From NCBI GenBank assembly GCA_031425655.1, contig JANPJS010000269.1, positions 1 to 22,804 on the forward strand: DNA of 22,804 nt, read 5' to 3'. The notes under the pieces are model-generated. The model had not been told where the DNA came from, searched no databases, and saw nothing but the letters and a program-made list of their open reading frames with translations. Shown piece after piece: positions 2,321-21,996 of the stretch. Made by a program: the position numbers and the translations under genes. Source of the stretch: Abditibacteriaceae bacterium (lineage in GTDB: Bacteria; Armatimonadota; Abditibacteriia; Abditibacteriales; Abditibacteriaceae). Position 1 is the stretch's first letter, and each line of letters starts with the position of its first letter.

Positions 2321-3205
2321 TTATCCGTGTTCATCCGTGGTTCTAACAATTGCGTCAGTCATGCGCGCGACTTGCGCCATTTGCTTCACGTCGTGAACGC
2401 GCACGATGTCGGCACCGTTGGCAATCGCTAAAGCCGTGGTCGCGGCGGTGCCGAAAAGTCGCTCGCCAATCGGCGCATCGTCGAGAATTTTACCGATGGT
2501 AGATTTGCGGCTCGTCGCCGAGAGCGTCGGGAAGCCGAAATCGCTGAGTTCGCGCCCGCGCCGCAGGATTTCCAGATTTTCATCCACGGATTTGCCGAAT
2601 CCGAAGCCGGCATCTAACGCGATGCGCTCATCCGCGATGCCCGCCGCTCGCGCCGCTTCAACTCGCTCGCGCCAGAAATCAAGAATCTCTTCAATTACAT
2701 CTTGATTCCGCATTCCGCATTCCGCATTCCGCACTTGCCGGCTCCATTCCATCGTTTGCGGCGTGCCGCGCAGGTGCATGAGAATCACGCCACAGTCGAA
2801 TTCGGCCAGCGTTGGGAGCATCGCTGGGTCGAAAGTGCCGGCGGAAATGTCGTTGATAATCGCGGCGCCGGCTTCAATCGCGGCGCGGGCAACGGCGCTT
2901 TTGGTGGTGTCAACCGACAAAGGAACGTCCAATCGCGCGGTCAGCGCCCTTATAAGAGGAAGGACGCGGCGCAATTCTTCGTCTTCGGGCACTTTTTCGG
3001 CGCCGGGGCGCGTGCTTTCGCCGCCGATGTCAAGAATATCGGCGCCGTCTTGCGCTAATTGCAGCGCGTGCGCCAGCATCGCGTCCAAGCCGCGCGCCGC
3101 AACGCCGTCGCCCGAAAACGAATCGGGCGTGGCGTTGACGATGCCCATCACATAAGTTTTGCGATGCAATTCCAGTGAATAACAACCGCATTTCCAAGTG
3201 TTCAT
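2321..3205 (-). CDS. folP: Dihydropteroate synthase
   Basis: VMGIVNATPDSFSGDG, DILDIGGESTRPGA, SVDT, DAGFGFGK, SRKS and RVHDV motifs. True start is probably ATG 3205; the 592-aa ORF extension overlaps the TPR gene. Confidence 0.97.
   Translation of the reverse strand: MNTWKCGCYSLELHRKTYVMGIVNATPDSFSGDGVAARGLDAMLAHALQLAQDGADILDIGGESTRPGAEKVPEDEELRRVLPLIRALTARLDVPLSVDTTKSAVARAAIEAGAAIINDISAGTFDPAMLPTLAEFDCGVILMHLRGTPQTMEWSRQVRNAECGMRNQDVIEEILDFWRERVEAARAAGIADERIALDAGFGFGKSVDENLEILRRGRELSDFGFPTLSATSRKSTIGKILDDAPIGERLFGTAATTALAIANGADIVRVHDVKQMAQVARMTDAIVRTTDEHG
2705..2732. repeat. Heptamer tandem repeat (ATTCCGC)x4 inside folP
   Basis: attccgc attccgc attccgc attccgc; translated in frame as VRNAECGMRNQ between PQTM and DVIEEI. 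Confidence 0.9.
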
Positions 3206-3213
3206 AAGAGGAA

Positions 3214-3332
3214 AAACGGGAAGACGGAAAGGGCGGTAAGACGGGAAGAAAATTTGAATTTCTGACAACACAAAGCTGTTCAAAAACTCCGGTTCCTCTT
3301 CCCGACTTACCGCCCTTTCCGTCTTCCCGTTT
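3214..3332. repeat. 36-bp near-perfect inverted repeat of ~8-nt units (ACGGGAAG) upstream of folP
   Basis: AAACGGGAAGACGGAAAGGGCGGTAAGACGGGAAGA (3214-3249) versus TCTTCCCGACTTACCGCCCTTTCCGTCTTCCCGTTT (3297-3332), 35/36 complementary, 47-nt spacer. Confidence 0.95.
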
Positions 3333-3348
3333 GAATCAACGAAGCGCG

Positions 3349-4125
3349 TTAATGCACGCGCGGCGCGGGAGCCGCATCGGAGGGCGTGAGGTCGGCGACC
3401 ATGTGGCGCAGCGATTCGCGGCCCGATTCGCTGAGATGAAAGCCGCCTTCGGCTAAGGCCGCGTCGAAGTGACGCTCTAAATTCAAGCGAAAGTTGTTTT
3501 GTTCGGCGGCCAGCATGAGGATTTGCTGAGTTTGCAGGCGGTCGAGGGCTTCGACCGCTTCGTTGGCATCGTTGGCGAAGGGAAAATCGCCGTGTGTTTC
3601 GAGAACGCGCTGAAATTCGCGCGACGAGGCGCCAAGTTCGCCTTGCAACTGCATCAGCGTGGCGAGTTTCAAGCGATGCAGCGGGTCGCGCGGCGAAATG
3701 GCGAGCAGGCGCTGCATCACTTCGATGGCCGCGTCCAGTTGGTTGGTTTGCAAATGCGCCGTCGCCAAAAGTTCGAGCGCCGCGTGGTGGCGCGTTTGGC
3801 GCTTGAGGATTTCGCGGCACGCCTGCGCGCCGGCGTCCCAATTTTGCGCGCCCAAATGCGTTTCGGCCAATCCCAGCAAAAGTGAGATTTGCGCGTCCGA
3901 ATTGGCTTCTTCGTTGATTTTTAAAGCGCGTTCTAAGGTGCGAATCGCCGCCGACACGTCGCCGTCCTGCACTTGCCATTCGGCGATTTGCAGCCAGCGC
4001 GCGGCGTCGTGCGGCTCCGCTTTCGCGGCGCGCGATAGAACGCGCGCCGCCGCCGCCCATCGCCGGCTTTCGGCCAGTTTTTCGGCTTCGGCGTCCCAAA
4101 TTTTTACGATTTCTTCGTTGCTCAT
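3349..4125 (-). CDS. Tetratricopeptide repeat protein
   Basis: Repeated helical TPR-like units (AAIRTLERALKIN; AAIEVMQRLLAISPRDP; SSREFQRVLETH). Confidence 0.85.
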   Translation of the reverse strand: MSNEEIVKIWDAEAEKLAESRRWAAAARVLSRAAKAEPHDAARWLQIAEWQVQDGDVSAAIRTLERALKINEEANSDAQISLLLGLAETHLGAQNWDAGAQACREILKRQTRHHAALELLATAHLQTNQLDAAIEVMQRLLAISPRDPLHRLKLATLMQLQGELGASSREFQRVLETHGDFPFANDANEAVEALDRLQTQQILMLAAEQNNFRLNLERHFDAALAEGGFHLSESGRESLRHMVADLTPSDAAPAPRVH

Positions 4126-4892: not shown

Positions 4893-5759
4893 TTAGAAAC
4901 TTACGCTGAAATTGAGGCCGGGATCGCGTTTGCCATCGGGGTTGCCGACGGCCAAAGCCGTCACGCTGTAGCGTTGCCAATTGTAAGTGGCGGCCAAGTG
5001 CGAACGCACGCCGTCGTGCAGCAGCGTGGCGCTCCAATGCCGTCCCAAACTGGCATTCACGCCCCACGGCACGAGAACGCGCTTTTCAAATTCGCTGTAA
5101 CTTAGGCCGACATAAGGCGAGATGGGCACGCCCAAATGCGGCTGTAAACTTTTGCTAAGCGTGGCGAAATAAGATTGGCCATTTGGCGTGCCGATGCGGT
5201 CGGAGCTGGTGCCGAAAATCAGCGCCGGACGCGTCCTCGTTTCCCGCACGGCGCGCCAATTCGCTACGATGCCCAATTCTTTCACGCCAGCGTTATATTC
5301 CAAGCCCACACGCCAATCGGGTGAAGCTTGATACGTCAAGATGGTGCGATGTGTGGCGCGCTTGATTTGTCCCGAAATGTATCTTTGCGAAAGTGACCAT
5401 CGCAAAATGGTGTTAGTGCCAGTCCCACGGACTGCGGTGCCTTCGCCCGGTCAGCCAGGTCACGAAGGCACCAGCGAGGCCATGTCCGGCGTTTTCGGCT
5501 TAACGCTCTTTTTGGGAGTTTGGCCGCTGGCCTGCAATTCCCGAAGCGTATCGAAAAGCTGCGAAAAGCGTTCGGGATCGGCTAAAAACTCGTCTTTGCA
5601 GGCGCGGTCTCGCAAATAATAGGTTTTTCCGGCGTATTCGACTGTTTCCGCTGTTGGAGTTGGTTTATCGAGAAGACAATCGGCGCCGGCGGCGAACGCC
5701 GGACGAAGCGAAAAAAGGCTTATTGCGGCCCCGAAAACCAATAAAGTGATGTGCTTCAT
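4893..5759 (-). CDS. Predicted exported double-selenoprotein (288 aa): signal peptide + YHS-like domain + U-P-G-U motif + beta-strand-rich C-terminal domain
   Basis: ORFs 5460..5759 and 4893..5405 share a frame (offset 354). The linker reads ATG GCC TCG CTG GTG CCT TCG TGA CCT GGC TGA CCG GGC GAA GGC ACC GCA GTC CGT GGG ACT GGC ACT AAC ACC ATT TTG CGA TGG; its only stops are the two TGA. The downstream part has no ATG or RBS of its own. The coding status of both halves is clear; the readthrough is inferred. Confidence 0.75.
5420..5434 (-). promoter_or_regulatory. Candidate bacterial SECIS hairpin
   Basis: mRNA CAGUCC-GUG-GGACUG: 6-bp perfect stem with a G-initiated loop, 22 nt after the second UGA and 31 nt after the first. 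Confidence 0.6.
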
Positions 5760-6454
5760 GGCTTTTCCGATGCTGTATCCGGCGTTTTTTCGGCCAGCGC
5801 GCTTTCGATGGCTTGAACAATGACTTCAGGCGAGGTTTTTTCGCCGAAACGCCGCAAAATCTTACCGTCGCGCCCGACTAAAACTAAAGACGGCAGCACG
5901 CTGATTTTGTAATCGCTCCACAGTTTTTCCGTGGCCTGCGCCATCGGATAAGTCGCGCCGGATTTTTTCACGAATTTGGCGACGAGTTCGGGCTTTTCAT
6001 CAATGGCCAGCCCGATAACGCTGAATTTCTTCGCCGCATATTTTTTGTGAAGCGCTTGAAGTTTGGGCAGCGCCGCCACGCACGGTTTGCAGAACGTGCC
6101 CCAGAAATCGAGAAGCAAAACCTGACCTTTGAAATCGCTGAGTTTCAGCGTGCGGCCTTGCAAATCGCGCTGTGCGAACGACGGCGCCGGTTGGCCTTCG
6201 CCGGTATCGAGAAATTCGGTTGGATTTTCTAAGAACTCGACTTTGCACGCGACGGCGCAAAACGAGAACGTTTTGCCACGCAGCGTGGCCGTAGCATTTA
6301 CAGGCTCAACATCGGCGCCTTCGCGAGGCCCGCAGACCGCGCAAACGGCTTGGATAGCAGCTTTCGATGCTGCCGGAGCCGCTAAAACCACGCGCGGCGC
6401 GCATAAAGGCAACGCCAAACCAAGACTCAACATAAAACAAGAAGTAATTTTCAC
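5756..6454 (-). CDS. Exported YHS-domain + TlpA/ResA-like thiol-disulfide oxidoreductase
   Basis: Signal peptide; YHS-like CAVC...RGKTFSFCAVACKVEFLENPTEF; APSF..DLQGRTLKLSDFKGQVLLLDFWGTFCKPC; LPSLVLVGRDGKI. Its stop overlaps the next start (ATGA at 5756-5759). Confidence 0.92.
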   Translation of the reverse strand: MKITSCFMLSLGLALPLCAPRVVLAAPAASKAAIQAVCAVCGPREGADVEPVNATATLRGKTFSFCAVACKVEFLENPTEFLDTGEGQPAPSFAQRDLQGRTLKLSDFKGQVLLLDFWGTFCKPCVAALPKLQALHKKYAAKKFSVIGLAIDEKPELVAKFVKKSGATYPMAQATEKLWSDYKISVLPSLVLVGRDGKILRRFGEKTSPEVIVQAIESALAEKTPDTASEKP

Positions 6455-6497
6455 GAAGCGTTGGACGCGCGGAATGCTGTGAAGATTCGCGCTTTAT

Positions 6498-6588
6498 AAA
6501 CCCGGCGATTGAAATCGCGGCTCCGGGCTTTCAGCCGATCTGCCCAGAGGGCGCCCAGCCTGCGCGGACGGAATTTCAATCGCCCGGC
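6498..6588. repeat. REP-like palindromic element with GCGATTGAAATCGC core
   Basis: CCGGCGATTGAAAT (6502-6515) pairs with ATTTCAATCGCCCGG (6573-6587). The same core occurs at 13618-13631 and partly at 4311-4328. Confidence 0.7.
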
Positions 6589-6594
6589 TCAATT

Positions 6595-8127
6595 TCAACT
6601 TTCCAATGAACTTAAATCGCTGTTGGCCGGGCCATTGACGACATGGCCTCTGGCGTCGAAGCGCGAGCCGTGAGCAGGGCAGTCCCAGCTTTTTTCGCTG
6701 CTGTTCCAACGCACGATGCCGCCCAAATGCGGGCAAACCGCCGATTTTTCGTGCAAAGCTCCGCTTTCATCGCGGAAGCAGGCGATTTTGTGCAAGCCCT
6801 TCCTTATAATGGCGCCTTCGCCGGGCGCGATGTCATCGGCGGAATGCACGTCGCCGCCAGTTACCCAATCGGCGTATTGCGCGGCCATATTGCCGCTTTC
6901 CTTTAGAAATTCGCCCGCCGCGCGCAGAGTTTTGCGCGCCGGATTGTAAAGCCCCGCCCATTCGTTATCGCGGCCCAAAATCAAATCGCGGATGAGAATT
7001 CCCGCAATGGTGCCATGCGTCATGCCCATGCCGCTGTCGCCGGTTGCGATGAAAACATTGGGCGAATCGCTGGGATTACGTCCGATAAAGGCCAAACCGT
7101 CAACCGGTTCGAGCACCTGTCCCGACCAGCGAAACAGCACTTCGCCGAGCGGCGTAAAGCGTTCGCGCGCCCATTCTTCCAAATTGGCGTAGCGCGATTC
7201 GGCGTCGTCGGCTTGGCCGGTTTTGTGATCTTCGCCGCCGACAATCAACACTTCGTTGGCTTCGTCCAACGCTTGCAATCGCACATAATGATAAGGATCG
7301 GCGGTATCCCAATAAAGTCCCGGCTCGACGGCGCCTTTTGGCACTTGGGCGCCGATGACGTAAGTGCGATAGGCTGCTTGTTTGGTGTGCATCGTCACCA
7401 TGTCGTTGAAGGGCGAATTGGTGGCGACAACCACGAATGTGCAAGTGACTTCGTGCCCGCCCGCGACTTCGACGCGCGCCACGTCTTCCGATTCGGTGCT
7501 GATTTTTTCAACGTGGCTGCCGCAGTAAATCTTGCCGTCGTATTTTTCGACGGCGCCGGCCAATCCGTCCAAGTATTTTAAAACGTGGAACTGCCCCTGA
7601 CGCGGAAAGCGCAGCGCCGGGCCGCTCTCGAAATCCACAAGCGGCGCGCGTTCGATTTTCTCGACAGCGTTATGTCCGGCGCGGCGTGCGGCTTCGAGTT
7701 CATCATCGAGAACTTGCGTGTCTTCGCCCGGCGCGGCGAAAAGAAAGCCGTCCAATCGCGCGAAATCGCATTCGATGCCTTCCAGCCGCGTGATGCCTTC
7801 TATTTCATCAATCGCGGCGTTGTGGCTCTCGAAGGCGAGTTGGGCGCCGCGTGCGCCGTGCAAACGCTCAATTTCCACATAGGTGTCGTCAATTTCGTTG
7901 GATAAATGCGCCGTGGTGCGCGAAGTTTCGCCGCCGCCAATCGCGCCATCATCTAACACCACGACCGAGCGCCCGGCTTTAGCCAGTTGATAAGCAACGC
8001 TCAATCCGGCGATGCCGGCGCCGATAACGCAAACATCGGCCTCGACATCTTCGTTCAACGGTGCGTAAACCGGCACTTGGGCGGTGGCAATCCACAGCGA
8101 AATACTTTGTCCTAATTCGGGATTCAT
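6595..8127 (-). CDS. FAD-dependent oxidoreductase (DAO family) with C-terminal Rieske 2Fe-2S domain, YhfW-like
   Basis: DVCVIGAGIAGLS dinucleotide motif; Rieske boxes CPHLG and WDCPAHGSRF; AAGGAG before ATG 8127. Confidence 0.93.
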   Translation of the reverse strand: MNPELGQSISLWIATAQVPVYAPLNEDVEADVCVIGAGIAGLSVAYQLAKAGRSVVVLDDGAIGGGETSRTTAHLSNEIDDTYVEIERLHGARGAQLAFESHNAAIDEIEGITRLEGIECDFARLDGFLFAAPGEDTQVLDDELEAARRAGHNAVEKIERAPLVDFESGPALRFPRQGQFHVLKYLDGLAGAVEKYDGKIYCGSHVEKISTESEDVARVEVAGGHEVTCTFVVVATNSPFNDMVTMHTKQAAYRTYVIGAQVPKGAVEPGLYWDTADPYHYVRLQALDEANEVLIVGGEDHKTGQADDAESRYANLEEWARERFTPLGEVLFRWSGQVLEPVDGLAFIGRNPSDSPNVFIATGDSGMGMTHGTIAGILIRDLILGRDNEWAGLYNPARKTLRAAGEFLKESGNMAAQYADWVTGGDVHSADDIAPGEGAIIRKGLHKIACFRDESGALHEKSAVCPHLGGIVRWNSSEKSWDCPAHGSRFDARGHVVNGPANSDLSSLES

Positions 8128-8335
8128 GGCTGCTCCTTGATTTCGCCCGGCCCAGCAGCAAGCGAAGTGCCGGAGCAAAGAAAGCGTAACGCGACGTTAG
8201 GTTGAAATCGAAAGTGGGCATAATATGAACGCGAAATGTTTTTGTTAAGCAAAAATTGCATCGCCGTGATATAATTTCACCATTCCATTGCCGCATTACG
8301 CCGCCCCGTGGAGATTATCCGAAGGAGATTGTTTT

Positions 8336-9775
8336 ATGTTTGAAACCACTGAACACAGCAATTGTTCGAACGTGCAAACCGTGGCCTCGCGCCGCGAGTT
8401 CCTGCAAACCGCCGGGGCCGGTATGGCCGGTTTGGCTTTAACCGTGCTTCTCGATGGCCAAGACGCGCACGCTGCGGCGCCATCGCTTTTGGTGCCGTCA
8501 AAAGGCGGCGCCAAGAAAATCGCGGTTGCCAACGGGCCACTCGCGCCCAAAATGCCGCCGCTGCCGGCCAAAGCGAAATATGTGATTCACATTTTCGCGG
8601 GCGGCGCGCCCAGCCATGTGGACACCTTCGACCCGAAGCCGGGAATGCAAAAGCACCGCGATCAAACCGTCGGCAATTCGGGCGGCGTGATCTTTCCGTC
8701 GCCTTTCGAGTTCCCCAAATGCGGCAAAAGCGGCCTGGAAATCAGTGAAATCTTCCCCAAATTGGGCGAAGTCGCCGACGAAATGTGCGTGATTCGCTCA
8801 CTGACCGCCGATGTGCCGGCTCACGGCCCCGCCGCCAAATTTATGAACACCGGCTCGCTGGTTTTAACCAAACCCAGCCTCGGTTCGTGGGTGCTTTATG
8901 GATTAGGAACGGAAAACCAGAATTTGCCCGGCTTCGTGGCTTTGGGCGGCAGCCCGGATTGGCGCCAATCGGCGTTTTTGCCTTCCCTTTATCAGGGCGC
9001 CAAAACCGATTACCGCGCCGGAGCGCCCGTAGACAAAGTTTTACCGAACCTGCGCAGCGACTTCGCCACGCAAGACGAGCAGCGTTTGCAGCTCGAATTG
9101 GCGCACAAACTCGACGATATGCACATGGAAAAAGTGCGCCGCGACGAGCAACTCGAAGCGCGCATTGATTCGTTTGAATTGGCTTTTCGGATGCAAACCG
9201 AAGCCATCGAAGCCTTCGATATCACCAAAGAAACGCAGGCCACACGCGATCAATATGGCAAAGGCCAGCTTGGCGCGCGTCTTCTCGTGGCGCGCCGTTT
9301 AGTTGAGCGCGGCGTGCGTTTTGTGCAAGTAGACGCCGGCGGTTGGGATCACCACGCCAACCTGGAAACTTCCATCACGCGCACCGCTGCGGAAATTGAC
9401 AAAGCGGCAGGCGCGCTCATCGCCGACTTGAAAGTGCGCGGCTTGCTCGAAGAGACTCTTGTCATCTGGGGCGGCGAATTCGGACGCACACCGACGACCG
9501 AAGGGCGCGTTGGCGAAGCATCAGGGCGCGATCACCACTCGAAGGTCTATTGCACCTGGATGGCCGGCGGCGGCGTCAAAGGCGGCACGGCTTACGGTTC
9601 CAGCGACGAACTGGGCATGAACCCCGGCACCAATCCCGTGACCGTGCATGATCTGCACGCCACGATTCTGCGCTTGATGGGCTTCGATCATAAGAATCTC
9701 ACCTATCGTTACAACGGGCGCGACTTCCGACTCACCGACAACTTCGGCGAGATCATCAAAGACATCATTGCGTAA
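8336..9775 (+). CDS. DUF1501 domain protein with Tat-like signal
   Basis: SRREFLQ twin-arginine motif; GAPSHVDTFDPKP, ARRLVERGVRFVQV, WDHH, GEFGRTP, GRDH, HDLHATIL; AAGGAG before ATG 8336. Confidence 0.93.
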   Translation: MFETTEHSNCSNVQTVASRREFLQTAGAGMAGLALTVLLDGQDAHAAAPSLLVPSKGGAKKIAVANGPLAPKMPPLPAKAKYVIHIFAGGAPSHVDTFDPKPGMQKHRDQTVGNSGGVIFPSPFEFPKCGKSGLEISEIFPKLGEVADEMCVIRSLTADVPAHGPAAKFMNTGSLVLTKPSLGSWVLYGLGTENQNLPGFVALGGSPDWRQSAFLPSLYQGAKTDYRAGAPVDKVLPNLRSDFATQDEQRLQLELAHKLDDMHMEKVRRDEQLEARIDSFELAFRMQTEAIEAFDITKETQATRDQYGKGQLGARLLVARRLVERGVRFVQVDAGGWDHHANLETSITRTAAEIDKAAGALIADLKVRGLLEETLVIWGGEFGRTPTTEGRVGEASGRDHHSKVYCTWMAGGGVKGGTAYGSSDELGMNPGTNPVTVHDLHATILRLMGFDHKNLTYRYNGRDFRLTDNFGEIIKDIIA

Positions 9776-9781
9776 AACCGG

Positions 9782-9824
9782 AAGGGCAGGCGTCGCTTTG
9801 CAGCGGCGCCTGCCCTTGTTTTTT
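9782..9824 (+). terminator. Rho-independent terminator-like hairpin
   Basis: AAGGGCAGGCGTCGCT-TTGC-AGCGGCGCCTGCCCTT followed by GTTTTTT. Confidence 0.8.
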
Positions 9825-9874
9825 CACTTCAGGGCGGACATGGCGATTTGGTCGCCGATTGTCACTTTACTCCC

Positions 9875-12800
9875 ATGCGCACCCTCTCATTTTTGCTTCT
9901 TTTGTCCATGCCGGCGGCGGTTTTAACAGCGGCGCCGGTTTTTGCTGCCGACGAAAAGCCCGACGCCAAAGGCGTCGAGTTTTTCGAGGCGAACATCCGC
10001 CCCGTTTTAATCGAAAAGTGCTATTCCTGCCACAGCCTTGCAACGAAAGCCAAAGGCGGATTGTTGCTCGACACCCGCGAATCTACCCTGCGCGGCGGCG
10101 GGAGCGGCCCGGCTATCGTGCCCGGCAAGCCCGACGAAAGCCTGCTTTATAAGGCGATTGCCTACGCTCAGGCCGATTTGCAAATGCCGCCCGCGGCCAA
10201 ACTTCCGGCGGCTCAAATCAGTGCCATCCGCGCGTGGATTCAAATGGGTGCGCCCGACCCACGCGATAAGCCTCCTGCGGGCGCCGGAGCCGGCGTTCTC
10301 AACGGCATGACGCCCAAAGCCAAGTCTCACTGGGCTTTCAAGCCGTTGAAAAAGGTCGAAGTGCCCAATCCGCCCGATGACGTGCAATGGCCCGGTTGGA
10401 CGAAAAACGCCGTGGATCGCTTTGTTTTGGCTTCGCTGCAAGCCAAACGCATCGCGCCGAGCGCTACGGCGCCGCGCGCCACGCTGATTCGCCGTTTGAG
10501 CTACGACTTGCTTGGCTTGCCGCCCACGACGTTGGAAATGAAGGCGTTTGTCAATGACAAATCGCCCGATGCGTGGGAAAAAGTGGTGGATAGAATGCTT
10601 GCAAGTCCGCACTATGGAGAGCGCTGGGGGCGTCACTGGCTCGATTCGGCGCGTTACTCCGACACCACAGGCAACGATGACGACGGCGGCAGTATGCGCA
10701 TCTCGGATTATCGCTTTCCCTATGCGTGGACGTATCGTGACTACGTCGTTAAGGCCTTTAACGATGACAAGCCGTATAACCAGTTCCTCATCGAGCAAAT
10801 CGCCGCCGACAAACTGCCGGACGTGAAGCCGAACGACGAGCGACTGGCTGCTCTGGGATTCTTGACGGTTGGCAAACGCTTCGCCAACAACGACGACACC
10901 ATTGACGAGCGCATTGACGCCTTAACTAAATCCACGATGGGCCTGACTGTGGCTTGCGCGCGTTGCCACGACCACAAGTTCGACCCGATTCCGACTGCCG
11001 ATTATTACGCGCTGCACGGCGTTTTCGATTCGCTTTACGAGCCGGAAGAAAAGCCGCAATTGGCGACCGAAGCCAAAGAAGACGACCGCGTGCAGTTCGC
11101 CATGAAACTGGCGACGCTGGAAAGCAAAAACCGCGACGTAATTTACAAAATCCTGCGCGACCGCTTGACGCAGTTCCAGGACGGCGCCGAAGGTTATTTG
11201 CAGATTGCCCTGCTGCCCAACCGCTCGCCGCGCCGCGCTGACTTGGCCAAGCAATACAAGATCAACCCCGACGAGCGCGAGATTTTCGATTCGCTGCGTA
11301 TCGGCGGCGACCACCCGGTTCTTGGCCCTTTTCAACAACTGGCGCGCGTGCCGGACGATTCGTTCGCCGACAAATCCGCCGAACTGATTCCCAGAATCCT
11401 CAAAGACAAGAATTACAACCCGCTGGTCACGGCGATGCTGCGCGATTTGAAGCCGCAGTCGCTGCTCGATTTGGCCAAAGCTTACGGCTCGCTCTTCGCT
11501 AAAGCCAAGCAATCCACGCCGGATTACTTCCGCGAGCGTTCCACGGCGGGCAACAAGATCGTGCCCGTGGATGCGGCGATGGAACAAATCATCAACACGC
11601 CGTATTTCATTCCCGCCGCCGATGACATCTCCACGGCGCCGCAGCAGGCCGAATACTTTTCATCGCGCAAGCTGATGAAAGAAAGGTGGCAGCGTGCCAT
11701 CGAACTGGACGGCAGCGAGCGCCGCTTGCTTTTCGCGGCCATCAACGAATTGCGCCTGACCGAAAAAGGCGCCACGCCCGCCGCGATGATTATTGGCGAC
11801 AAAGCCAACCCGCGCAACAGCCGCATTTTCATTCGCGGCGAACGCTCCCGTCTTGGCGCCGAAGCGCCGCGCCAGTTTTTGGAAATCGCCGCCGGGCCGG
11901 GCCGCCAGCCGTTCAAAGAAGGCGCCGGACGCCTCGAATTGGCCCGCGCCATCGCCGATAAACAGAATCCTCTAACGGCGCGCGTCATGGTCAACCGCGT
12001 GTGGATGTATCACTTCGGCGAAGGCTTCGTGCGCTCGCCGGACGACTTGGGCAATATGTCGGAAACGCCCAGCCATCCCGAACTGCTCGATTATTTGTCT
12101 GGCTGGTTCATGGAGCGCGGCTGGTCGGTGAAGCAACTGCACAAGCTGATTTTGATGTCGAAAACTTATCAGCAGGACAGCGAAACGCGCTTCGACGGCG
12201 AGGAAGGCAACCCCGACAACCGCTTGCTGTGGCGCTCGAATTTGCGCCGTCTCGACTTCGAGGCGATCCGCGATTCGATGCTGCAACTGACCGGCAAAAT
12301 GGACACGACCGTCGGCGGCCAACCGGCCAACATCACCGACGAGCCGTATTCGTATCGCCGCAGCGTTTATGGGTTCGTGGATCGTTTGAATTTGTCCGAC
12401 CTGATGAGTCAGTTCGATTTCGCCAATCCCGAAATGACCAACACCAAGCGCATCACCACGATTGTGCCGCAGCAGGCCTTGTTCTTTATGAACAACGCGC
12501 TGCCCGTCGAAGTGGCGCGGCAGATAGCGGCGCGGCAAAGCGTGACCAACGCACCCGACGACGTGGCGCGTGTCGAAGCGATTTACGAAGTGCTTTTCCA
12601 ACGCGCGCCCAAAGAGCGCGAAATCGCTATGGCCGGTGCATTCATCCAGAAAGCCACGGAAATCTACGACAAAAAAGTGCCCGACGCTTCTGCTGCGGGC
12701 AAAGAAGGCAAGAAAGAGGGCAAAATGGTCTGGAAAGACGGCAAAATGGTCTGGGAAGCCAAAAAGCCGGTCAAAGAAGCGCCCAAACACATCGGCACCA

Positions 12801-12979
12801 TGATGATGCAGATGGATCCGAAAGCCGAAATTGACATGGGCAAAATGTCCGAAATGGCGCGCAACAAGTTCGCAGTGATGAAAAACGAAGGCGACCTTGT
12901 CGAACGCAAACCGCTCACGCCATGGGAGCTTTACGTGCAAGCGCTGCTTTATTCCAACGAGTTCGTTTATGTGAACTAA
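9875..12979 (+). CDS. Planctomycete-type cytochrome c + DUF1549 (PSCyt2) + DUF1553 (PSD1) protein
   Basis: Signal peptide; FFEANIRPVLIEKCYSCH; HWAFKP; YGERWGRHWLDSARYSDT; CARCHDHKFDPI; NPLTARVMVNRVWMYHFGEG; PSHPELLDYL; ends SNEFVYVN. Confidence 0.95.
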   Translation: MRTLSFLLLLSMPAAVLTAAPVFAADEKPDAKGVEFFEANIRPVLIEKCYSCHSLATKAKGGLLLDTRESTLRGGGSGPAIVPGKPDESLLYKAIAYAQADLQMPPAAKLPAAQISAIRAWIQMGAPDPRDKPPAGAGAGVLNGMTPKAKSHWAFKPLKKVEVPNPPDDVQWPGWTKNAVDRFVLASLQAKRIAPSATAPRATLIRRLSYDLLGLPPTTLEMKAFVNDKSPDAWEKVVDRMLASPHYGERWGRHWLDSARYSDTTGNDDDGGSMRISDYRFPYAWTYRDYVVKAFNDDKPYNQFLIEQIAADKLPDVKPNDERLAALGFLTVGKRFANNDDTIDERIDALTKSTMGLTVACARCHDHKFDPIPTADYYALHGVFDSLYEPEEKPQLATEAKEDDRVQFAMKLATLESKNRDVIYKILRDRLTQFQDGAEGYLQIALLPNRSPRRADLAKQYKINPDEREIFDSLRIGGDHPVLGPFQQLARVPDDSFADKSAELIPRILKDKNYNPLVTAMLRDLKPQSLLDLAKAYGSLFAKAKQSTPDYFRERSTAGNKIVPVDAAMEQIINTPYFIPAADDISTAPQQAEYFSSRKLMKERWQRAIELDGSERRLLFAAINELRLTEKGATPAAMIIGDKANPRNSRIFIRGERSRLGAEAPRQFLEIAAGPGRQPFKEGAGRLELARAIADKQNPLTARVMVNRVWMYHFGEGFVRSPDDLGNMSETPSHPELLDYLSGWFMERGWSVKQLHKLILMSKTYQQDSETRFDGEEGNPDNRLLWRSNLRRLDFEAIRDSMLQLTGKMDTTVGGQPANITDEPYSYRRSVYGFVDRLNLSDLMSQFDFANPEMTNTKRITTIVPQQALFFMNNALPVEVARQIAARQSVTNAPDDVARVEAIYEVLFQRAPKEREIAMAGAFIQKATEIYDKKVPDASAAGKEGKKEGKMVWKDGKMVWEAKKPVKEAPKHIGTMMMQMDPKAEIDMGKMSEMARNKFAVMKNEGDLVERKPLTPWELYVQALLYSNEFVYVN

Positions 12980-20494: not shown

Positions 20495-20719
20495 ATGAGT
20501 TTGCAGGAAATCGAAAAACAGATCGAAGCTTTAACGCCCACCGAGTTTGCGGAATTGGCGCGTTGGATGCTTGCACATCGCCCTGTAGCGCCTCAATCGA
20601 AGAACGCACTTGATGTGTTGTTCGAGAACGCAGGCAGCCTTTCCATGCCGCCCGATTGGGCCGAAGAGCACGAGCATTATTTGTATGGCGTTCCCAAGCA
20701 GCACCAGAATGAGCAGTGA
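20495..20719 (+). CDS. Putative antitoxin
   Basis: 74 aa; ends PPDWAEEHEHYLYGVPK, a tail typical of genes upstream of PIN toxins; overlaps the toxin start. Confidence 0.8.
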   Translation: MSLQEIEKQIEALTPTEFAELARWMLAHRPVAPQSKNALDVLFENAGSLSMPPDWAEEHEHYLYGVPKQHQNEQ

Positions 20720-21129
20720 TGGCGGAGCATTATTTTCTGGACACGTTTTTTGTGCAGGCCATTTTGAATGGTGCCGATGCTTATCACGAGCGAGCCGTGC
20801 AATGGAAGCCGGTGCTGTATCAATCCGAAATTTGGGTTACGGAAGCCGTATTAGTCGAAGTGGGCAATGCCCTGAGTAAAACAAGTCGCACCATAGCTGC
20901 GGACTTTATAATCGGTTGTTACTCTGCGCCTAACATTCATGTCGTTGCCGTTACATCGGAGTTGTTTGAACTTGGTCTTTCCCTTTACTTGGAGAGGCCC
21001 GATAAAGAATGGGGTCTCACCGATTGCATATCGTTCGTGGTGATGACCAGTCAGGGTATTCGTCTCGCCTTGACCGGCGATCATCATTTCGCGCAAGCTG
21101 GATTCACGCCCGTTTTGTCTTCGTTGTAA
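20719..21129 (+). CDS. vapC: PIN-domain (VapC-like) toxin
   Basis: YFLDT, VTEAVLVEVGNALS, DKEWGLTDCISFVVM, ALTGDHHFAQAGF; TGATG coupling to the antitoxin. Confidence 0.92.
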   Translation: MAEHYFLDTFFVQAILNGADAYHERAVQWKPVLYQSEIWVTEAVLVEVGNALSKTSRTIAADFIIGCYSAPNIHVVAVTSELFELGLSLYLERPDKEWGLTDCISFVVMTSQGIRLALTGDHHFAQAGFTPVLSSL

Positions 21130-21253: not shown

Positions 21254-21517
21254 ATGACAGTCGAACAAATTGTGGCTGAAGTGCGTGCCATGCCGCCGAA
21301 CGAACGACAGAAACTGCGCGCAGTATTGGATGAGACGCCGGAGGGTGAGGCGACTATACGGGCGCGCGAGCGCGCCTTCGCCGAGAAACTGCGGGCCGAG
21401 AGTGCGGCCTATCGCGTTGACTTTGACGAAACGGCGGTTGTGGATAGCTGGGAGTTCAAGCCTGTTTCCATCGAGGGAAAACCCATTTCGGAAACCATTA
21501 TCGAGGAACGGCGCTAA
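21254..21517 (+). CDS. Putative antitoxin
   Basis: 87 aa; ends GKPISETIIEERR; TAATG overlap with the PIN gene. Confidence 0.85.
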   Translation: MTVEQIVAEVRAMPPNERQKLRAVLDETPEGEATIRARERAFAEKLRAESAAYRVDFDETAVVDSWEFKPVSIEGKPISETIIEERR

Positions 21518-21996
21518 TGGGCCTGCTCTTTCTCGACAGCAGCGCGCTGGTCAAACGCTATGTTGCAGAAACCGGCTCATCGTGGATCAACGGATTAATG
21601 TTGGTATTGGATGCTGACGGCAAGCCGGTGAATACGGTTGTCGTCGCCAACGTGACGCTGGTGGAAGTGACGTCGGCGCTGGCCCGCCGAGCGCGTGGCG
21701 GCAGCATCAGCAAAACGGACGCGGTTGCTCTTCAGGCGCAATTTCGCAGCGAAATCAATATCCGGTTTTTCGTTAAAGATTTGACGGCCTCTCAAATCGC
21801 CGCTGCGATGGACGCCGCTGAGAAACACGTTCTGCGCGGCTACGACGCCGTGCAGTTGGCAGTTGCGCTTTTTTTGAACAAAGAACGCACATTGGACGGA
21901 TTGCCGATGCTGACTTTCGTCGCTGCTGACGCGGAACTGCTCGCCGCCGCGCACGCTGAAGGCTTGCCGGTGGATAACCCAAATCTGCATCCGTAA
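21517..21996 (+). CDS. vapC: PIN-domain (VapC-like) toxin
   Basis: FLDSSALVKRYVAETGS, VEVTSALARR, LRGYDAVQLAVA, FVAADAELLAAAHAEGL. Confidence 0.93.
   Translation: MGLLFLDSSALVKRYVAETGSSWINGLMLVLDADGKPVNTVVVANVTLVEVTSALARRARGGSISKTDAVALQAQFRSEINIRFFVKDLTASQIAAAMDAAEKHVLRGYDAVQLAVALFLNKERTLDGLPMLTFVAADAELLAAAHAEGLPVDNPNLHP

Follow-up and report, generated by a model that had tools for sequence, protein, structure and literature searches.

How bacteria place two selenocysteines (Sec) three codons apart with an in-frame SECIS element is an open question, and the idea that a single SECIS might suffice has merely been raised (PMC13582414). The question arises with a gene of an Abditibacteriaceae bacterium, on the minus strand of the stretch of DNA analysed here (the window; 22,804 nucleotides), whose reading frame is interrupted by two closely spaced TGA codons. 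It had been predicted from the sequence that both UGAs lie inside one hairpin (stem 1), immediately followed by a SECIS-like hairpin (hairpin 2); that the latter may serve both codons; and that the former may pause ribosomes or tune the ratio of a short YHS-only product to the full-length protein. The minus strand indeed reads exactly as quoted in that prediction, and RNAfold returns both hairpins. The features of the locus are as follows.

4893..5759, minus strand: gene, 288 aa with both TGA codons read as Sec; homologs read through in the same frame
5691..5759, minus strand: residues 1-23, a likely signal peptide for the Sec pathway, recognized by eye in the sequence
5562..5654, minus strand: YHS-like domain, residues 36-66 (PF04945, E 3.2e-5, below the Pfam cut-off)
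5460..5462, minus strand: UGA1, predicted Sec100; TGA in 98 of 99 distinct loci; aligns with Cys of CxxC paralogs
5451..5453, minus strand: UGA2, predicted Sec103; TGA in 99 of 99 distinct loci; aligns with Cys of CxxC and UxxC paralogs
5436..5472, minus strand: stem 1 (10 bp plus 5 bp), enclosing both UGAs; a fold of the window sequence, genus-restricted and not a family feature
5420..5434, minus strand: SECIS-like hairpin (hairpin 2), 6 bp, loop GUG at 5428-5426; from folding and covariation
4896..5399, minus strand: predicted 12-stranded outer-membrane beta-barrel; from AlphaFold2 and Foldseek
5756..6454, minus strand: upstream gene with a YHS-like domain and a TlpA/ResA-type thioredoxin with CKPC; from domain searches

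Read through both UGAs, the 288-aa protein consists of the signal peptide, the YHS-like domain, the motif VPS-U-PG-U-PGEG and a predicted barrel ending in Phe. The YHS-like domain scores 24.3 bits with PF04945, where the cut-off is 30.3, and this model matches 19 of 77 family members. AlphaFold2 models the barrel part with 12 strands at a mean pLDDT of 90.3 and the whole mature chain, with Cys substituted for Sec, at 91.7, the motif region reaching 81-86. In Foldseek, the barrel resembles the small 12-stranded barrels FapF, KdgM, and NanC (E 2.4e-6 to 8e-4), with which it shares 9-13% identity. YjbH-like barrels (PF06082) are another neighbor, the corresponding ESM Atlas cluster being 83% YjbH at 0.96; only 1 of the 77 members matches PF06082, weakly and below cut-off (E 0.0019), and the YjbH-like matches that were fetched (L139-L141) carry no Cys/Sec motif. 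The stop codon of the upstream TlpA gene overlaps the start of the barrel gene (ATGA), and we consider the YHS-like/TlpA-type protein a likely partner of the barrel protein.

Several other observations were made in the window. A 592-aa open reading frame (2321-4099, minus strand) carries dihydropteroate synthase in its C-terminal half alone, its N-terminal 310 aa being without a Pfam or NCBIfam match. On the plus strand, 8288-12979 holds a gene pair of DUF1501 (with a TAT signal) and DUF1553/DUF1549/PSCyt1, and two neighboring PIN-domain frames at 20716-21129 and 21517-21996 are likely toxin-antitoxin modules. The intergenic segment 4157-4258 shows identical promoter-like hexamer pairs on opposite strands, suggestive of an inverted repeat; a similar long palindrome occurs elsewhere in the same genome (C70:985-1095), and repeats were seen by eye at 6480-6600. 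A promoter and terminator scan near the barrel gene returned nothing exceeding shuffled sequences, and Rfam at its gathering threshold gave no match in the window.

To see the gene in its family, we collected 112 loci, of which 2 came from genome contigs, 80 were the best of 580 metagenome matches, and 30 came from a sample of 401 genomes of the phylum, the window itself among these; 12 duplicates were dropped, leaving 99 distinct loci. The motif [U/C]xxUPGE is present in 111 of the 112, the remaining locus being cut by a contig end. Around this main family lie paralogs of the forms CxxC (10 loci), UxxC (1), CxxU (2, with a third inside the main family), and one distant UxxU. Full-length Cys homologs among close relatives were not found in the best 120 of 204 matches and appear as distant paralogs alone.

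The paralogs are diverse in their own right. The CxxC forms L130-L134, L153, L154, and L157 are ∼380-425 aa long, place repeated YHS domains (CPVM, FCC) before the barrel, and occur in genomes that also carry selB. Four distant barrel paralogs (L135, L136, and L137 from genomes G283, G339, and G314; L138 from G385) have C-P-L-U or U-P-L-U motifs with a hairpin loop 20-21 nt downstream and represent further candidate selenoprotein subfamilies; G314 holds three forms (UxxU, UxxC, and CxxU). The homolog P0193 reads PACVGWPGEG, with Cys and Trp at the two Sec positions, which is either a variant or a sequencing error. In one subgroup (L039:2553-3857, as well as L050, L066, L075, and L079), a longer second barrel-type frame with a weak PF13557 match lies just downstream.

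Are the UGAs decoded as Sec? The genome holds selA, selB, and selD, all above cut-off, with a tRNA-Sec (anticodon UCA, 8-bp acceptor, G73) directly after selD (C40:91-1281). The selD gene has an in-frame TGA itself (CAG-U-ASK), with downstream hairpins of its own that differ in form from the SECIS of the barrel gene. Across the phylum sample, a selB match was obtained for 217 of 401 genomes, and for 61 of the 66 among them that have a barrel match, as counted by eye, with related genomes not independent and with three of the 66 having motif-less YjbH-like matches. The five barrel-match genomes without a selB match comprise two with the CxxC form, two with UxxU (93% and 67% complete), and one in which the gene is cut. 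Within the 99 distinct loci, 197 of the 198 motif codons are TGA and one, at the UGA1 position, is TGC; the true stops of the same genes are mixed (37 TGA, 36 TAG, and 25 TAA; n = 98). Since TGA is thus the commonest true stop in these genes, a general recoding of UGA can be dismissed.

Gene callers annotate the locus differently, taking UGA1 as an ordinary stop and the barrel as a separate gene with a downstream start. Databases accordingly hold the barrel as a headless fragment of 130-190 aa, in many entries starting with MAVRGT (named ones being from Acidobacteriota and Abditibacteriota), and a stop at UGA1 would leave a whole TlpA in those loci where TlpA is fused to the barrel. Such a start is hard to find, however: an ATG within 12 codons exists in just 6 of the 99 distinct loci, and no part after UGA2 (0/99) has a hydrophobic signal that could serve as signal peptide; in the 70 aa ahead of UGA1, 31 of the 99 show a hydrophobic stretch. 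Nor do the two codons ever drift to TAA or TAG, and there are uninterrupted CxxC paralogs with Cys at both Sec positions. We therefore give the two-gene reading next to no credence.

Alternatively, a system of the tRNA-ReC (SelC*) type that relies on the same hairpin might insert Cys at one or both UGAs, or some other residue might be inserted there. This proposal draws on PMC13582414, in which tRNA-ReC-like genes are reported for Armatimonadota that have UxxU hydrogenases (5 of 5 genomes) and readers are cautioned that UGAs of this kind may be Cys. In the genome studied here, however, ARAGORN at its default threshold and Rfam RF01852, neither of which is a dedicated tRNA-ReC model, find one tRNA with a UCA anticodon, and it is the canonical tRNA-Sec. 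An odd, long "tRNA-Cys" on contig C235 is a poorly paired match that reads as coding sequence, and a relaxed ARAGORN search yielded noise alone. We judge decoding as Cys or another residue to be very improbable; from the sequence evidence, it is very likely that both UGAs are decoded as selenocysteine.

Decoding as Sec calls attention to hairpin 2. In the RNAfold structure of 5472-5420, it is a 6-bp hairpin (5434-5420) with loop GUG, located 3′ of stem 1, and its loop G at 5428 lies 31 nt from UGA1 and 22 nt from UGA2; the energy of the region is −14.2 kcal/mol. In Zhang and Gladyshev's consensus model of the SECIS, which PMC13188914 presents, a loop of 3-9 nt with G within its first two positions tops a stem of 4-16 bp, with 16-37 nt from UGA to loop and an energy of at most −7.5 kcal/mol. 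Hairpin 2 falls within these limits for loop size, stem length, loop G, spacing, and energy. As in known bacterial SECIS elements (PMC13188914), it sits in the coding sequence just 3′ of the UGA with a 6-bp stem and a 3-nt loop starting with GU, at spacings of 22 and 31 nt; what differs here is that two in-frame UGAs are in range of one hairpin and that the family hairpin occurs in two registers.

Conservation supports this assignment. In an ungapped alignment of 98 rows (91 distinct), the six base pairs of the window hairpin are kept in 74.4% of cells compared to 60.9% in shuffles, with a covariation of 0.381 compared to 0.191 and none of 500 shuffles as high; slid controls were 38-51% paired. 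In single folds, the hairpin takes up one of two registers that differ by 4-5 nt; RNAalifold on all 98 rows returned no consensus pairs. When rows are split into registers by peptide motif, an assignment made after the folds were seen, 301/315 and 284/322 cells are paired (33 of the 38 misses in the latter are one G-G), and the loop G is found in 45/45 and 46/46 rows, that is, in all 91 distinct rows. Mapped on the protein tree, pairing was conserved through 12 two-sided and 28 one-sided changes and broken 16 times. One close contig, of depth 3.7, breaks a hairpin-2 pair.

Had the hairpin been equally present in Cys homologs, the SECIS assignment would have been in doubt, and on this point the outcome depends on the stringency of the test. 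With strict limits on a local hairpin, set after single folds had been inspected, all 89 UGA forms pass, as do 135 of 1,284 background positions and 1 of 10 CxxC forms (1 of 7, then 0 of 3 further ones). Looser limits that approximate the published SECIS model likewise accept 89/89 UGA forms, from both UGAs, but 8/10 CxxC forms and 380/889 background positions as well, and so do not discriminate. Compared with synonymous recodings, the hairpin-2 region gains only modestly in stability (mean z −0.78; control, −0.20). With the loose test undiscriminating and the gain in stability modest, the case for hairpin 2 rests on its fixed position, invariant G, and covariation rather than on energy. By these measures, the second hairpin of the original prediction is conserved in TGA-containing homologs and behaves as a SECIS element, with SelB as its predicted ligand.

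Can this one hairpin serve both codons? In 86 of 89 loci, the hairpin-2 loop starts 17-22 nt after UGA2 and hence 26-31 nt after UGA1, both spacings lying inside the published range of 16-37 nt (PMC13188914). A natural example, albeit a single one, is the UxxC paralog L137, which has a G-first loop 31 nt from its sole UGA, the very spacing of UGA1 in the window; in CxxU forms, the hairpin loop is 18-21 nt from the UGA. A second, nearer SECIS for UGA1 was also considered and discarded: only 3-bp stems appear over the PGEG codons, which are too weak and whose third positions vary. Given a hairpin conserved with covariation, both spacings in range, and the L137 hairpin at UGA1 spacing, one SECIS serving both UGAs is the best reading of the data, and the prediction to this effect is supported.

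Mechanistically, SelB-GTP-Sec-tRNA would bind the G-first loop of hairpin 2. With its first base 25 nt past UGA1 and 16 nt past UGA2, the hairpin should stay outside the ribosome at both codons and could be loaded twice. In Escherichia coli, ∼40% of ribosomes insert Sec and 60% terminate (PMC4513850). If 40% insertion held twice independently, ∼16% of products would be full length, so that the short product needs no special stem; failed insertion would yield a short YHS-only product anyway, making a tuning stem dispensable.

What, then, of stem 1? In the RNAfold structure of 5472-5420, ten outer pairs (5472-5463 with 5445-5436) leave UGA1 (5462-5460) as a 3-nt bulge, and an inner stem of 5 bp with one U-G pair (5459-5455 with 5450-5446) closes a CUGA loop that holds UGA2 (5453-5451). 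The whole fold has −33.1 kcal/mol and a z of −4.54, with 1 of 200 dinucleotide shuffles as stable; stem 1 itself reaches z −5.0 against shuffles and −2.56 against synonymous recodings of the same peptide. Such strength in the window is one argument for a stem 1 that delays ribosomes or fixes how much short relative to full-length product is made, if only in the window's genus. Others come from its relatives: 9-10 of the 10 outer pairs are kept in 3 of 98 loci, all from this genus (3 of the 3 members having the gene), with 5/5 inner pairs and z −2.3 to −2.9; a family member keeps 8 of the 10 outer pairs; one two-sided change within the genus turns U-G into G-C at Pro third positions; and the Ser codon before UGA1 is TCG or TCA in these genomes, as opposed to AGY in 64 of 99 loci.

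Beyond this lineage, the stem is not conserved. Over 98 rows, 44.6% of the cells in its ten pairs are paired, compared to 44.9% when shuffled (with 343 of 500 shuffles scoring as high), the mean z against synonymous recoding is +0.16 over 93 loci, and the tree shows 1 two-sided change and 21 one-sided changes against 48 breaks. The only pairs that never vary join Pro CC to Gly GG, so that what conservation there is comes from the codons of these two residues. Even close to home, one inner pair is broken in four of four closely related contigs taken from other runs, as is an outer pair in three of the four, without compensation, and the three genus members are not independent of each other. A further, near-identical contig shows no difference over 5200-5800 but could be where the window's own DNA came from. 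A pausing or tuning stem, as originally proposed, is thus not conserved among TGA-containing homologs.

The position of the stem also speaks against a role in decoding. The ribosome unwinds structure at the mRNA entrance (PMC7026636). Because both UGAs lie inside stem 1, it would have to melt before they are decoded; it would be gone before either UGA enters the A site and could not present them, and any pause would fall several codons earlier.

We also considered whether stem 1 might act as a switch that sequesters the SECIS. When 18 further bases upstream are included (5490-5400), stem 1 grows longer in the predicted fold and hairpin 2 is lost (pair probability, 0.02); in the alternative fold of naked mRNA (5417-5490), the SECIS loop pairs with upstream bases. 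This predicted sequestration in naked window mRNA is a further point in favor of a role for stem 1. Because the longer fold destroys hairpin 2, the two hairpins are predicted to coexist just in a short window or with upstream RNA masked as by a ribosome (0.98 and 0.67), the masked length being that of a ribosome footprint. A conserved switch was rejected, in that the two other genus members, unlike the window, are not predicted to sequester the SECIS (0.99 and 1.0). Over 98 loci, the SECIS probability rises from 0.44 in naked RNA to 0.74 and 0.89 with upstream RNA masked, a rise that masking alone can explain. All in all, we regard a functional stem 1 as unlikely, though less so than the two alternative readings of the UGAs discussed above; it is probably a lineage-restricted by-product, and a stem hiding both UGAs is not a feature of the family.

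Taken together, we consider it highly probable that both UGAs are decoded as Sec via the single hairpin 5434-5420, giving an exported protein whose Sec-Pro-Gly-Sec arm precedes a predicted 12-stranded outer-membrane barrel; the stem around the UGAs is probably a lineage-restricted by-product.

How does this protein relate to known selenoproteins? Closest in coding arrangement are the UXXU group 4 [NiFeSe] hydrogenases, which likewise combine UxxU with one predicted downstream SECIS and for which the authors raised the idea of one SECIS for two UGAs (PMC13582414). The barrel protein is unrelated to them, its family includes a natural UxxC form that places the hairpin at UGA1 spacing, and its genome yielded no tRNA-ReC in the ARAGORN and RF01852 searches. 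Table 1 of PMC13188914 lists 119 selenoprotein families, including UxxU families and two outer-membrane selenoproteins. The catalogued UxxU proteins, i.e., a Prx-like thiol:disulfide oxidoreductase (PF00578), a metal-binding protein (NF041115), and the FmdB family TIGR02605, are alike in having two Sec three residues apart and CxxC homologs; in contrast to the window protein, which matches none of these models, none is a beta-barrel. Conversely, the GSU2204-family MtrB/PioB-type barrel (NF041027) and the FCYXU TonB-dependent receptor (NF049945) are also predicted outer-membrane barrels with Sec, but with one Sec each, and neither model matches any of the 77 members.

No family in that table matches the barrel protein, which we therefore take to represent a selenoprotein family absent from the catalogue. 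NCBIfam gave no match for the window protein, and 8 of the 77 members touch NF041384 weakly (YHS; best E, 2.8e-4). A literature search, which covered the main texts of BSepDB and deep-Sep, and Haft and Tolstoy 2025 through Table 1 of PMC13188914, found no description of a UxxU barrel family; in those two main texts, the terms "UxxU" and "barrel" do not occur.

For clues to function, we looked at the neighbors. By a pattern-based search of 1.5 kb upstream, a TlpA-type CxxC domain is fused to the barrel in 32 of the 99 distinct loci, adjacent in 22, absent in 28, and unscorable in 17. YHS domains recur, be it in the barrel gene, in the TlpA gene, or as repeats in CxxC paralogs. Metal-efflux functions (AcrB/CusA-type RND, P-type ATPase, cation efflux, chromate transporter, ArsR, ArsA) neighbor the gene at a minority of loci, in a scan of 28 plus 168 frames, the latter selected from 327, most of which are unrelated to metals. 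These associations are consistent with an envelope redox or metal site reduced by the adjacent TlpA, for which we see the chances as about even. In such a scheme, the UxxU pair would face the periplasm as a diselenide/selenol or metal-binding site that TlpA keeps in the reduced state, the YHS domains would deliver or bind a soft metal, and the barrel may serve as anchor or gated channel; this is the weakest step of our proposal, and we would lean neither for nor against it.

Whatever its function, this predicted outer-membrane selenoprotein family is a widespread addition to those known; gene callers split its genes in two, and searches based on Cys homologs would tend to overlook it. In nature the family comprises ∼90 distinct sequences, places its hairpin in two registers, and displays every one of the four Sec/Cys combinations, which makes the spacing rules for double decoding testable. 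In its fullest form, a picture in which we place middling confidence, this would be an undescribed, near Sec-only outer-membrane barrel family with a diselenide-forming or metal-binding UxxU arm, whose one SECIS is loaded twice by SelB within three codons and which, in Armatimonadota and Acidobacteriota from soil and sediment, may work together with periplasmic TlpA and YHS domains as an envelope gate, of redox or heavy-metal type and dependent on selenium. If this holds true, its natural UxxU, UxxC, CxxU, and CxxC alleles would make double decoding directly testable.
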